From Eledone cirrhosa (Eukaryota): 64,000 nt of DNA. The notes beneath the pieces are model-generated. The model saw only the letters and a list, made by a program, of their open reading frames with translations, was not told where the DNA came from and ran no database searches. The DNA lies in the NCBI GenBank assembly GCA_964016885.1, contig OZ024745.1:125364001-125428000 (forward strand), given 5' to 3'. Below, in pieces: positions 4,789 through 63,135 of the stretch. The translations under genes were made by a program, and so were the position numbers. Position 1 is the first letter of the stretch, and each line of letters opens with the position of its first letter.

Positions 4789-5127
4789 CTATTTTCGTGT
4801 AAGTTTCCAGGCATAGCAAGGACTCTGGAAACTTATTAAAAAAATAATTCAGAGGTAAGGAAATAGCGAAGCGTGGACTGAAATCCTAGCCATTGAGAAA
4901 ATCACTGCCTCTACGTCTGTGGCAAATTCAAAAGAATCAATCACGTGACATCGAGCTCAATCAGTGGAAAGCGAGTTGTTAATAAGACAGCGCCTGCCTA
5001 CTACCATAGCAGCAGTCATGGCCAATATTGCGCGACAAATGATTTGGAGATAATTATAAAGAATTTATATCTAGTAACATTTATATACATACAGATGCAT
5101 ATCAATGCTAGCAAATATATAGGTTAT

Positions 5128-5159
<32 letters not shown>

Positions 5160-5171
5160 ATATATATATAC

Positions 5172-5220
<49 letters not shown>

Positions 5221-5241
5221 CATATATACATATATATATAC

Positions 5242-5288
<47 letters not shown>

Positions 5289-5321
5289 CATATATACATA
5301 TACATATATATATATATACAT

Positions 5322-5575
5322 ATCATCATCATCATCATCATCGTTTAACGTCCATATTCCACGCTTGCATGGGTTTGGATGGGAGTTTCCCCACTTGAGG
5401 CAAGATTGGTTATCTTGCTCGCATAGGACTGTCTGGCAGGTTTTCTACGGCTGGATACCCTTCCCAACACCAACCACGTTTACAGTCTGGACTGGGAGGT
5501 TTTTTACCGTGTAACCTACACGGCCACATTACAGCGTGGACTGTGTGTTTTTTTGTGGTGACACCTACACGACCT
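5322..5575 (-). mobile_element. SINE 3' part with RTE-like tail and (GAT)n end
   Basis: The minus strand contains ggttggtgttgggaagggtatccagccgtagaaa and ends aacccatgcaagcgtggaatatggacgttaaacgatgatgat. It is homologous to 11690-11960 and 16910-17050. Confidence 0.7.
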
Positions 5576-5713
5576 CATTTGTTTCGGAATGGATGTTGTG
5601 CTACCAACATAACTTTACATTTAAAGGGATGGTGTGGATGGGGTGGGGGTAGTGGGACGGGGGTGTATTTTTGTTAGAGGTGCCTACTGACTGTAGTAGG
5701 TTTCACTTTGTAC

Positions 5714-6118
5714 TTAGGTAAGGCGGGTCTTCTGTATTACTGTGTAGCGCCAAAGATCTCGGTCCAGTGACATTGTCTTGGAGAGGTGTAAGTGTGTGAG
5801 GCCGGAATTTATCAAGTCGTCCCAGGTTTTTCTGGGTCTGCCTACTCCGTGGCTACCGTCTATTTTTATTGCCCTACAGCTGTCGTCTTTCATGCGCATC
5901 ACGTGACCATACCAACCTAGTCTTCTCTCCAGTAAACAACATCTGATCCCTCTTATTTCTAATTTTTCCCTTAGTTCGTTTATGCTTTGCCGTGCACGTA
6001 TACTACTATTACACATCCAGCGGAGCATACATGCTTCGTTCCTCTCCAGTCTGCGTATATCATCTGCACACAATGCCGAGGTCTCACTGCCATGTAATAT
6101 TGCTGTTCGTATGCAGGC
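5714..6118 (-). pseudogene. RTE-clade LINE 3' fragment (post-RT region)
   Basis: [58 protein letters not shown] matches RTE C-terminal motifs. It is truncated at the (TA)n array. Confidence 0.85.
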
Positions 6119-6890
<772 letters not shown>

Positions 6891-40631: not shown

Positions 40632-40715
<84 letters not shown>

Positions 40716-40836
40716 GGAGGTGAGTTTTATTGTAGCACCATAAAGCAATGCAAATATCGGATAAGTAGCACACTACAGTTTGTAGGAGTGGAGTATAAAT
40801 AATATAATATCAAAAGATGGTTAAAAGAGTTCCAAG

Positions 40837-40907
40837 TATTTTATTATGCGCATTTCAAAAACAAATATCATCATGGGGTGATATCAACGTTTTCATCAGA
40901 TAAAATA
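40837..40907 (-). ncRNA. Minimal type-I hammerhead ribozyme in a probable PLE pLTR remnant
   Basis: Minus strand: uauuuuau CUGAUGA aaac...uuu GAAA ugcgca UA auaaaaua. Stem I is 8 bp and stem III is palindromic (UGCGCA). Confidence 0.85.
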
Positions 40908-41445
40908 GGGATACATGATATGAAGCTTAAAAAACACTTGTGAATAGTGAAGTTTTAAATCAACATATGAAAAATAATTTAAGATTGATGTATAAGATTG
41001 GGAACCATCTATCTTGTTTGTAATTGATCTTTCGGGTGCTTTAACTTTCATGGACAACAGTATTCAAGGTGGAGTCAGGCAAAAGTGGAGAAGAGAAGGA
41101 TAACAGTGTGGATATCTCTCGACTGGAAGGTTATGAGAATCCAGGAAAACATTATGCGGGCCATGTTAATTTTGCTGTTTATATGAGTGGCCCATATATA
41201 TACATATATATATATCTATATGTATATATGTATATGTGTGTATATATATATATGTTTTTCTACTTCCCGTGTCTCGGGTTATTTATTCCGTTAAAGAGGG
41301 TGCCGGATAATCGTTTCCTTCCAACAACCTGTGGAACTGGTTGGTGTGAGTAACACCACTCATTGGATCGTTGCATTTATCTCTTATCCGCTTAATCTCG
41401 TTTGAGATATATCCTCTCTTATCTCAGTTAGGAAGGACAAACTAT

Positions 41446-58894: not shown

Positions 58895-59607
58895 ATATAG
58901 AGAGAGAGAGAACGGTTAAATAAACAGTGGTGAGAACTTCAAGATAAAAAGAATCATCAATACTCCACCAACATGCTAAAATAGTACATAAGGGAAAATT
59001 AGAGAACATAGAAATAAAAATACAATCTACACACAAAAAAGACGCAATGTTTAGACAAATCACAGAGGCAATAAACATTAATGAACTCCAACCAAAATTA
59101 AATAGAAAACATGAATGGAATAGCAACATCACAACTTACAATTAAGGACAAAATGAAAACACACACACACACATAGAACAAACAATCAACCAGTAACATG
59201 TAAATAAACAAATAAATAAACAAATAAAAACGCACACAGACATCCGGATGTAACACATGCGCAAACTAAGCACACAACACAAACAAAAACAAGATGGCAT
59301 AGGACAGAACAATGGAGAGGCACAAAACAAAGAAAAGAATCCCCAGTCACTGAAGAGGTCACAGAATGTGTGACGAAAGAACTTTGACAATATATGAACA
59401 ACCGTCCGGTTATGGAACCAACCAACCAACCAACCGGAAATGTATAAATTCTTAAATTTATAAATTTAATTTATAATAAATTGGAGTGAAACTAACTGGT
59501 GCGTGTGTTTCTTATTGGCAACACGACCCTCCCAAAGCATAACGATATCAGTTTCAACACACGTTTTCAGATAAAGAATCTTGCTAAACAAATTCAGAAA
59601 CGAAATA
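58895..59607 (+). mobile_element. PLE 3' end: GIY-YIG C-terminal remnant + pLTR with a hammerhead motif (59346-59388)
   Basis: ERLNKQW*ELQDK/ESSILHQHAKIVHKG...DAMFRQITEAININELQPKLNRKHEWN. Hammerhead: guca CUGAAGA g gucaca gaaug ugugac GAAA gaac UU ugac. Bounded by TA tracts. Confidence 0.75.
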
Positions 59608-60722
59608 TATATATATGTAGAGGTTATATTTAATTTGTTGGGATTCAACAAGCTTAAAAATTTAATCCTTTATAACATTTAATCCTTGGAGTCATTTGAG
59701 ATCTTAAAAAATCACTTCTAACTTCCTTTACACATCCTTACTGTTTTTATAATATAATTAAGTAGTTATTCCTTTGTAAACTCTCGTAAATCTTTCATAA
59801 ATTTAGAATTATTTGGATGTTTAAATTTTGACTTACAACTATTAATAAATATAATTTTGCCAAACTTACTTTAATAAAATAAACTATACTAGATTTTCTC
59901 TAATGTAAAATACTATATATTTATTTAAAGAATTCATAATCCTTAACATACACATCTAAACCAATATATTATTACTAATACATCTTAATATAATATAAAT
60001 ATTGTTATACTTTGGGAGGGTCATGTTGCCAATAAGAAATATCAGTTTCAACACACGATTTCAGATAAAGAATCTTGCTTAACAAATTCAGAAACGAAAT
60101 AATATAAATACTTATATTTTAATTTTAATTTTAATTTTTAATTTTTAATTTTTAATTTTTAATTTTTAATTTTTAATTTTTAATTTTTAATTTTTAATAT
60201 TATTAATATTAAATTATTAAATTAAATCTTTAATATTAAGGCAAATTTTAATCTTTAATTTTTATTTCTAATTTTTAATTTTAATCTAATTTTTCAACCT
60301 ATCATTATAAATATTATAATCACAACGTAATGAACCTTACATTATAAATATTATTCTTCCACGTTAATCTTATATCTTCTTTCACTTAGATATGTTTACG
60401 CTGTGTATATTTCTCCATTGAAACTTATTTCTTCATTCACTCTATCTTCACTATCAATATGTATAATCGTTCTTTCTTTCCTCTTCTCTCTTTCTCCTTT
60501 CGTTTTTTCTTTTTTTTTCTCTCTCCGTTACATGTCATCCTCTTCCAACAGTTTAATTTAAATAAACCGTTATCTTTTCAACCTTTCGGACACTCATTTG
60601 CATACTCACTCATAACTTTGTATTACCCTCAATAAAGTATTATCTCCACTATCCAGGAAGCTCCAACCGTTAAGGTTGTCTTTTTTCCGGTTATGTCAAT
60701 ATTTATTTATAAAACAAATCTG

Positions 60723-60788
60723 TATTTTATCTGATGAAAGCGCACCCTAATTTTCCTTGGTTGCCCTTGAAATATGTATAATAAAATA
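60723..60788 (+). ncRNA. Minimal type-I hammerhead ribozyme (pLTR1)
   Basis: uauuuuau CUGAUGA aagcgcacc...gguugcccuu GAAA uaugua UA auaaaaua. Predicted cleavage after 60780. Confidence 0.88.
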
Positions 60789-60973
60789 AATATGGTTTTA
60801 TAAATATAGTTTCCATTTATTAATATATTATGTATTTACTCCACTAAACTGTTGAGTGCTTTATATCAGTTATAAAAATGTTTAAGCTTGTTGAATCCCA
60901 ACAAATTAAATATAACCTCTACATATATTTAGCTCCTTTATTGTTAAGCTCTTTAAATTATAACTGATTAAAA

Positions 60974-61882
60974 ATGGAATTCTTTAGGATCTCTTCTTAT
61001 CTAAAAGACATACCTTTACCTAAGAATAAGGACTTTCTAAAACAACTTATCGAAAAATCGGACTCATTTATAAGAAGACTAAGATGGCGTGCTTTTCATT
61101 TCGATAATAAATCTGATGCGAAAGAAAATATTTCCAATCTTGATAGAATCTTCAAATCCAAAAAGAATCCACCTTCCAACAAACTATTAATGGAATTCGA
61201 AAATGAGATTTTCTCTATCATACAAAACATTAAATTTAAGAAAAACCCCTTTGTAGGCCAGGATTACCTCAAAAGTCTCAAAAATAATATAGAAAACTTT
61301 GAACAAACAAAAAAAAATTATTGTTAAATCAGATAAAACCAAAAATCTTTACGGAATGCAAAAGGATGATTACAATAATCTTATATTGAAGGAATTAGGG
61401 AAAAATTACAAAAGAGCAACCAGTGATGACCTTGAAAGACTATATACTGAAGCTTCTTATATAATGCAGGAATTAGGCATTGAAAATAGGACTCAACCCT
61501 TCATACCTAGGAAACCAAAAATTAATTTGAAGTACCATAAAAAAATTTTGAAATTGAATTACCAGTTAGATTGATTGTACCATCTAAATCGGACCTTGGC
61601 ATACTTAGCAAGAATATTTTAGATAGAATCATACCACAACTTAAGGAAATATCTTATTTAAAATTATGGAATGGGACTAATGAAGTTATTGACTGGATTA
61701 AGGCCATTAAATATAAACGTAACAATAAATTCATTCAATTGGATATTGCTAATTATTACTCATCTATCACTCCTAATCTACTTAATAAAGCCCTTACATA
61801 TGCATTTAAATATACAGATTTAACTAGCAATGAAATGCACATTATCTTAATATTTAATCCTTGGAGTCATTTGAGATCTTAA
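60974..61882 (+). pseudogene. N-terminal half of a PLE reverse transcriptase with two frameshifts, truncated before YxDD
   Basis: LKDIPLP..FLKQLIEKSDSFIRRLRWRAFHF / IIVKSDKTKNLY / RLIVPSKSDLGILSKNILD..W.GTNEVIDW..FIQLDIANYYSSI. Frameshifts occur at the poly-A run ~61310 and at ~61545. Confidence 0.85.
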
Positions 61883-62820
61883 AAAATCACTTCTAACTTC
61901 CTTTACACTTCCTACTGTTTTTTATAATATAATTAAGTAGTTATTCCTTTGTAAACTCTCGTAAATCTTTCATAAATTTAGAATTATTTGGATGTTTAAA
62001 TTTTGACTTACAACTATTAATAAATATAATTTTGCCAAACTTACTTTAGTAAAATAAACTATACTAGATTTTCTCTAATGTAAAATACTATATATTTATT
62101 TAAATAATTTATAATCCTTAACATACACATCTAAACCAATATATTATTACTAATACATCTTAATATAATATAAAGACTTCTGTTTTAATTTTAATTTTTA
62201 ATTTTTAATTTTTAATTTTTAATTTTTAATTTTTAATTATTAATTTTTTATTTTTATTTTTTTTTATTTATTTATTTTTTTTTTTTATTTTAATATTAAT
62301 TTTTAATATTAATATTAAATTATTAAATTAAATCTTTAATATTAAGGCAAATTTTAATCTTTAATTTTTATTTCTAATTTTTAATTTTAATCTAATTTTT
62401 CAACCTATCATTATAAATATTATAATCACAACGTAATGAACCTTACATTATAAATATTATTCTTCCACGTTAATCATATTTCTTCTTTCACTTAGATATA
62501 TTTACGCTGTGTATATTTCTCCATTGAAACTTATTTCTTCATTCACTCTATCTTCACTATCAATATGTATAATCGTTCTTTCTTTCCTCTTCTCTCTTTC
62601 TCCTTTCTTTTTTTTTCTCTCTCCGTTACATGTCATCTTCTTCCAACAGTTTAATTTAAATAAACCGTTATCTTTTCAACCTTTCGGACACTCATTTGCA
62701 TACTAACTCATAACTTTTTATTACCCTCAATAAAGTATTATCTCCACTATCCAGGAAGCTCCAACCGTTAAAGTTGTCTTTTTTCCGGGTATGTCAATAT
62801 TTATTTATAAAACAAATCTG

Positions 62821-62886
62821 TATTTTATCTGATGAAAGCGCACCCTAATTTTCCTTGGTTGCCCTTGAAATATGTATAATAAAATA
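62821..62886 (+). ncRNA. Minimal type-I hammerhead ribozyme (pLTR2)
   Basis: Identical to 60723-60788. Predicted cleavage after 62878. Confidence 0.88.
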
Positions 62887-62978
62887 AATATGGTTTTATA
62901 AATATAGTTTCCATTTATTAATATATTGTATATATATATACTTAAGTAAACATTAATGCAATTCGCTTTTCCTTATTC

Positions 62979-63135
<157 letters not shown>

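Follow-up and report, generated by a model that had tools for sequence, protein, structure and literature searches.

The window analyzed here, a 64,000-nt stretch of the Eledone cirrhosa genome (assembly GCA_964016885.1, contig OZ024745.1, positions 125,364,001 to 125,428,000 of the forward strand; all positions below are counted from its first nucleotide), contains a Penelope-like element (PLE) in which two hammerhead motifs surround a truncated reverse transcriptase (RT) gene. The question raised by this locus is whether the two-hammerhead arrangement makes it a mobilized, retrozyme-like unit of the Naiad clade, as proposed in a first-pass annotation, or whether it is one more degraded copy of an abundant PLE family.

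Structure of the locus

The architecture described in the first-pass annotation is for the most part borne out: the element is a PLE with type-I hammerheads in its pseudo-LTRs (pLTRs), with direct pLTRs of ~1.1 kb, two identical hammerheads, an inverted stub at the left end and (TA)n at the right end. The direct repeats (59677-60828 and 61852-62926) differ by 12 substitutions over 927 compared nucleotides (1.3%; the comparison leaves out an AT-rich tract and an insertion), and each pLTR bears its own independent substitutions, though the two are not colinear, the left one having a 109-nt insertion and a 99-nt longer 3' tail. The inverted stub (59611-59658, minus strand) abuts (TA)n and is a 48-nt copy of the long 3' end of the element, the exact reverse complement of 60881-60928; comparable stubs are present in the loci L029, L039, L041, L079, L081, L087 and L088.

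The upstream pLTR (59661-60928, plus strand) consists of a 5'-truncated 3' UTR, a hammerhead and a 148-nt tail that continues as the 5' UTR. It aligns to 61852-62926 and to the 3' UTR of longer relatives, and in the latter alignment its start precedes by ~16 nt the 3' UTR position where the deletion described below ends. The gap in the pLTR alignment corresponds to a nested insertion (59990-60098), which is flanked by a 10-nt direct repeat (59991-60000 and 60100-60109) and is a stub-sized inverted pair of a second repeat family with dispersed look-alikes in (TA)n; it matches the 3' end of the neighboring element at 59494-59615.

Hammerhead 1 (60723-60788, plus strand; core at 60731, predicted cut after 60780) is followed by an intact hairpin 1 (ACTC-N12-GAGT-GC; 60838-60859, plus strand), just past the site, 49 nt beyond the cut (+49), where many copies of the family end, and by the position of hairpin 2 (GCTC-N10-GAGC-RC in the family; 60932-60951, plus strand), which lies just past the other end site, at +148, and is mutated here. 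The RT ORF remnant (60974-61850, plus strand) comprises the first ~292 of ~741 codons, spread over three frames by two frameshifts. It is interrupted at the deletion junction (61848-61852, plus strand), where ~1.9 kb was lost at a TAA(C) microhomology, and beyond which lies the downstream pLTR (61852-62930, plus strand), comprising the distal 3' UTR and hammerhead 2 (62821-62886, plus strand; core at 62829, predicted cut after 62878) and ending at the +49 site. Each hammerhead is held in an identical 138-nt block, and the two are spaced 2,098 nt apart. On the right, the element is bordered by a (TA)6 target remnant (62929-62940), with a long (TA)n further to the right (62982-63121).

The hammerhead motif

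In a descriptor scan of the window, helix I of both hammerheads is 8 bp long, AAG/CUU closes helix II and helix III has the form A-UAUGUA-U, around a type-I core (CUGAnGA / GAAA / UH); helix II with its loop spans 31 nt, positions 10.1-11.1 are A-U instead of G-C, and the cut triplet is AUA. Thus, of the perfect minimal type-I core previously claimed, the type-I assignment stands, whereas the motif departs from the strict minimal type as defined in PMC4209133 by the 8-bp helix I, the lack of an extra base after A9 and the A-U pair at 10.1-11.1. The resemblance to the minimal PLE hammerheads of that account otherwise extends to the type-I core in both pLTRs, the short palindromic helix III, the predicted dimer cleavage, and the dispersal of most copies as truncated singles or close inverted pairs. 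In an Rfam scan, no hammerhead family reached E<=1, and the matches were confined to low-complexity miRNA look-alikes.

The hammerhead descriptor has at least 26,039 matches in the 3.0-Gb genome and none when read backwards (exact match), so that the class is beyond chance; these motifs share helix I and the core but split into several helix II subfamilies, and a descriptor for the subfamily of the window has at least 2,235 matches. Covariation was assessed on 27 distinct motifs, namely that of the window and those in 20 loci hand-picked for diversity from the first 100 matches listed. In helix II, pairing holds at positions 1-3 in 26, 27 and 26 of the 27 motifs and at positions 5-7 in 25, 27 and 24, with A-U/G-C and C-G/U-A swaps, whereas position 4 is never paired (0/27), being always C-C or C-U; the inner pairs of helix III hold in 23/27 and 26/27. 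These compensatory changes, as read from the aligned motifs, support the hammerhead fold; the accompanying shuffle control takes no account of kinship between motifs and does not amount to a probability.

The first-pass annotation also correctly noted the 8-bp stem I and the near-palindromic stem III: helix III is self-complementary, as dimer cleavage would need, and by hand count its hexamer is fully self-complementary (G-U allowed) in 91 of the first 100 matches listed, which fits the dimer model put forward in PMC4209133. The hammerheads are accordingly predicted to cut as a dimer through helix III. Unconstrained folding misses the active monomer fold (-3.1 vs -7.6 kcal/mol) and the AUAUGUAU duplex is weak (-2.2); these calculated energies would fit a dimer-dependent, low activity. 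The PLE hammerheads reported in PMC4209133 cleaved weakly in vitro, even as dimers.

The RT remnant and the affinity of the element

The previously noted truncation of the frameshifted RT before YxDD is confirmed: the remnant stops after motif A (QLDIANYYSSI), before the MGS..D and LYRDD motifs. It is 88-91% identical to the 743-aa frame of L029, the longest of the single frames in longer relatives, which begin at the RT N-terminus and carry a LYRDD-type motif C; its ORF begins with the ATG at 60974, 194 nt after the cut site. The frameshifts fall within runs of A (near 61310-61318 and 61538-61545) and are private: no other sequence carries them among the distinct ones compared, 18 at the first site and 11 at the second. 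The window and L029 share RRLRWRAF, with K changed to R in the RWK motif (RWKA in four homologs), and DKG is changed to DKT, with KSDKTKNLY in the window and KSDKTNNLY in the relatives. A C-terminal GIY-YIG endonuclease is recognizable by motif in L029 (IVY...YVG, near residues 615-640), and L029 and L033 contain a CNCRNKSNC linker (CxCX5C), CSLCVEE and SCKH, with the second H of CCHH not seen on inspection. The linker and endonuclease are absent from the window copy, having been deleted, in keeping with the earlier remark that it has no GIY-YIG. Pfam gave no meaningful match for five proteins, RT pieces included, and a protein search with the L029 frame found 31 relatives at 31-42% identity, only one of them named, and uninformatively.

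By its motifs and domain order, as read from the protein sequences, the family belongs to the Hydra clade of C-terminal-endonuclease PLEs. As characterized in PMC8557442, this clade has RWK, DKT, a CxCX5C linker, no CCHH, and CxxC and CxH flanking conserved E and N; all these features are found here (with RWR for RWK), together with the (TA)n targets, the short-helix-III hammerhead in the 3' region, the partial tandem with an inverted stub and the one-ended tail described in the same source. On visual comparison, the same blocks can be made out in the printed protein of Hydra-1_Obim, an octopus element that prefers (TA)n (Craig et al. 2021, PMC8557442), but the present family is a different one, with a different hammerhead. 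Compared with the Hydra elements described in PMC8557442, the unit reaches 3.7-4.4 kb (vs generally under 3 kb) owing to its extended 3' UTR, the tail present at one end only measures ~99 nt (vs 30-40 nt), and helix II consists of three pairs, a conserved Y-C mismatch and then more pairs; furthermore, the window copy has lost most of the ORF. The Naiad assignment is not upheld. Naiads, according to PMC8557442, also form partial tandems with inverted stubs and favor (TA)n, but they are described there as having an N-terminal GIY-YIG endonuclease, a CxC linker, DKA and no canonical hammerhead, whereas the ORF here opens with the RT N-terminus, the endonuclease of the relatives is C-terminal, the motif is DKT and the hammerhead is complete. 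On the domain order deduced from the relatives, the Naiad reading is refuted, and we consider its chances negligible.

The two-hammerhead layout and the deletion junction

Full-length units of the family measure 3.7-4.4 kb. Among 40 loci fetched on the basis of similarity for a survey of hammerhead pairs, same-strand pairs 3.9-4.4 kb apart surround an ORF in L030, L035, L041 and L044, and pairs 2,988 and 1,595 nt apart surround other internal deletions in L046 and L047; L039 and L042 have further internal deletions. The pairs in L140 and L141 are 3,709 and 3,676 nt apart. An apparent same-strand pair with a 2.0-kb spacing at C1:23.19 Mb was discarded because it proved to be an inverted pair (L138). 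Judging from these sequences, two hammerheads around an ORF are the ordinary pLTR layout of the family. The family as a whole is a high-copy Hydra-clade PLE, and the locus is one of its thousands of decayed copies.

What distinguishes the window copy is the deletion, which fuses RT codon ~292 with the distal 3' UTR and removed RT motifs B-E, the thumb, the linker, the endonuclease and the first part of the 3' UTR. Both sides of the junction are found in relatives. The junction itself has a single match in the genome, the window (pattern search with up to 2 mismatches over 3 Gb of one assembly), and only the window spans it among the 40 scored matches (of 1,412 candidates). The junctions of L046 and L047, the other two checked for copy number in this assembly, also have one match each. 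Because most copies of the family are short stubs that do not reach the junction, we additionally searched for two rare loop-II letters common to both window hammerheads. They were found at one other locus (L147), an inverted pair of ~200 nt in which one of the letters is missing from the second arm; given their background frequencies of 1/103 and 3/103 aligned family segments, about one chance match is expected among thousands, and L147 was rejected as undiagnostic. The scope of this search is copies that span the junction or retain both letters; a short daughter that stops ahead of the junction and no longer has both letters would escape it.

The search for further copies with the same junction, suggested in the first-pass annotation, thus found none beyond this locus, and the mobilized retrozyme-like unit proposed there is not borne out, the junction being single-copy and without a convincing daughter. 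Uniqueness of the deletion was the very outcome named in that annotation as contradicting mobilization, and at the DNA level this is what we observe. A junction present once, against at least 2,235 subfamily and at least 26,039 class hammerheads, indicates a private deletion rather than a mobilized unit.

Ends, hairpins and templates in the family

Among 76 hammerheads with enough flanking sequence, 27 copies end at +31 to +70 past the cut (23 of them at +49), 23 end at +131 to +165 (20 at +148), 21 continue into the ORF and five end elsewhere. Inverted insertions usually have one arm ending at +49 and the other at +148, and this is the case in the window, where the long copy ends at +49 and the stub at +148. 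Other copies that contain the start of the ORF number 29, of which 19 extend upstream through the cut site and 10 begin downstream of it; a pile-up of 5' ends at the cut site was not seen (0/29). As 19 copies cross this site and none begins there, the templates were uncut or re-ligated at this point, and with the cut site serving as neither a start nor an end of copies, the usual template is not a linear RNA that has simply been cleaved.

Hairpins of the form RCTC-N-GAGY-RC lie past the end sites, starting at about +58 and +152. Of the 24 genuine read-through copies (24 of 32 rows, the other eight being spurious matches to the opposite strand of another subfamily that were left out), 15 have both hairpins, eight have one and one has none. 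Nine of the 26 other covariation motifs have the first hairpin, located at +51 to +65 and with a loop of 12-17 nt, and in most of the remaining ones a TA run begins at about the same distance. Because copies end before hairpin 2, this hairpin is found only in front of the ORF, an arrangement that, for the family in general, would suit a circular or tandem template.

Origin and fate of the copy

The best explanation of these observations, to which we assign a probability of roughly 0.86, is that the locus is a single non-coding Hydra-clade copy with a unique deletion, which likely arose by a template jump at insertion, and that the copy likely decayed without offspring. In the putative series of events, the hammerheads would process the transcript in the active parent. 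At a break in (TA)n, DNA synthesis would then have been primed twice, once on each side, at the end sites of the family, +49 for the long direct copy and +148 for the inverted stub. Extension of the long cDNA would have copied hammerhead 2 and then the 3' UTR before the RT crossed a short microhomology, TAA(C), to resume within the ORF; from there synthesis would have passed hammerhead 1 and entered the 3' UTR a second time, and the end of the cDNA may there have been joined to the stub through the TTTATAAC microhomology. The simplest reading would be a single integration in which copying faltered twice at one 3' UTR site, once in the jump to the ORF and once in the joining of the stub. It is also possible that the deletion occurred later, at the DNA level, through the same kind of microhomology, and this would leave the verdict unchanged. 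Decay is manifest in the 12/927 pLTR differences, the private frameshifts, the broken hairpin 2 and the nested insertion.

Upstream of the breakpoint, the left pLTR has wild-type 3' UTR letters and not those of the junction, which, as far as the letters go, argues weakly against rolling-circle copying of an already deleted circle; the argument is weak because the continuation of the stub supplies the same eight letters. Breakpoints near the same 3' UTR site recur in L086 and in L097/L018, and the ends of three of 28 other copies lie no more than 50 nt away from it (another, L110, is misaligned). These 3/28 give no demonstrated excess over a background of short truncations, and a breakpoint hot spot was not retained.

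Two other explanations were considered. Were the deletion or the frameshifts assembly errors, the real locus would be more complete than it appears; both frameshifts lie in A runs, and no listed contig or read of four sequencing runs, in which family variation is seen over 60640-62100, spans the junction. However, the junction microhomology resembles those of other natural deletions in the family, each pLTR has substitutions of its own and further substitutions surround both frameshifts, whereas the runs need not stem from the source individual, so that the gap in coverage proves nothing. We regard an artifact as very improbable. The locus might, alternatively, be or found a non-autonomous retrozyme-like unit, a 2,098-nt circle that intact Hydra elements would copy in trans from priming sites beside the hairpins. 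The hammerheads are indeed intact and identical while the ORF is broken, the 2,098-nt piece would hold both end sites and an intact hairpin 1, the passage of family cDNAs across the cut site (19/29, with 0/29 beginning at it) fits a ligated or uncut template, and such circles have been proposed for PLEs (PMC4209133). Against this, the junction is single-copy with no convincing daughter, at 1.3% divergence it is no surprise that the two 66-nt motifs are identical, hairpin 2 is mutated, and the weak in vitro cleavage mentioned above applies even to dimers; accordingly rated, a retrozyme-like unit is improbable.

Comparison with known retrozymes points the same way. The animal non-LTR retrozymes described by Cervera and de la Pena (2020, PMC7229834) occur as tandem and dispersed copies and are expressed as circles; as in the window, two same-strand type-I hammerheads could release a monomer. 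They are characterized there as short, non-coding repeats of about 150-450 bp in many copies, whereas the unit here has 2,098 nt, includes 877 nt of ORF remnant and is single-copy, and so differs in size, in the nature of the monomer and in the lack of amplification. An origin of retrozymes from PLE pLTRs has been proposed (Li et al. 2026, bioRxiv 10.64898/2026.07.22.740005), and circularization and spread of the deleted unit would directly show such an origin, but this copy shows no spread. A 2,098-nt RNA may still be released by the predicted cuts and circularize. If the piece were cut out and ligated, it would represent a 2-kb stage between a PLE and a retrozyme, produced by one template jump, copyable in trans and equipped with a priming hairpin. 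We consider this unlikely; if it were true, the end pattern of the family, with ends at +49 and +148, hairpin 2 only before the ORF and read-through copies, would be the footprint of a circular PLE intermediate.

The preferred reading, a private deletion in a decayed copy, gives the locus itself little weight, and it is the family-level data that are worth keeping: ~26,000 hammerheads with covarying helices and a self-complementary helix III are a large data set on the open question of the role of PLE hammerheads. In the literature within our scope, which mostly excludes subscription papers, we found no description of this family or of mobilized or amplified deleted PLE units with two hammerheads.

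Neighboring and related elements

The 3' end of a second PLE family (58948-59607, plus strand) lies directly to the left of the Hydra copy. It includes a remnant of a GIY-YIG C-terminus with an HQH...H motif (58948-59142) and a compact hammerhead with a 4-bp helix I and a CUGAAGA core (59346-59388). The end of this element lies in (TA)n, and it is in this TA tract at its 3' end that the Hydra copy sits. Stub-sized inverted pairs of this second family are common in (TA)n (L051-L057), and one of them forms the nested insertion of the upstream pLTR; in L051, a larger insertion of the same family is located at nearly the same pLTR position, and this recurrence suggests a favored AT-rich target.

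Elsewhere in the window, at about 40700-40960 (minus strand), there is a stub of another Hydra-type subfamily that ends in (TA)n, with a hammerhead core at 40899, the helix III hexamer TGCGCA and no ORF match in the window. In L047, a 611-aa frame of a more distant Hydra-type family (4903-6735, plus strand) adjoins the deleted unit. In L139 (G000:C1:13821000-13823500), two same-strand hammerheads only 206 nt apart (positions 1099 and 1305, minus strand) lie in a 148-nt direct repeat with no ORF match, which makes this locus, by its sequence, a better candidate for a retrozyme-sized unit than the locus in the window; comparable short tandem hammerhead spacings are present at C1:158831249 and C3:274740683.
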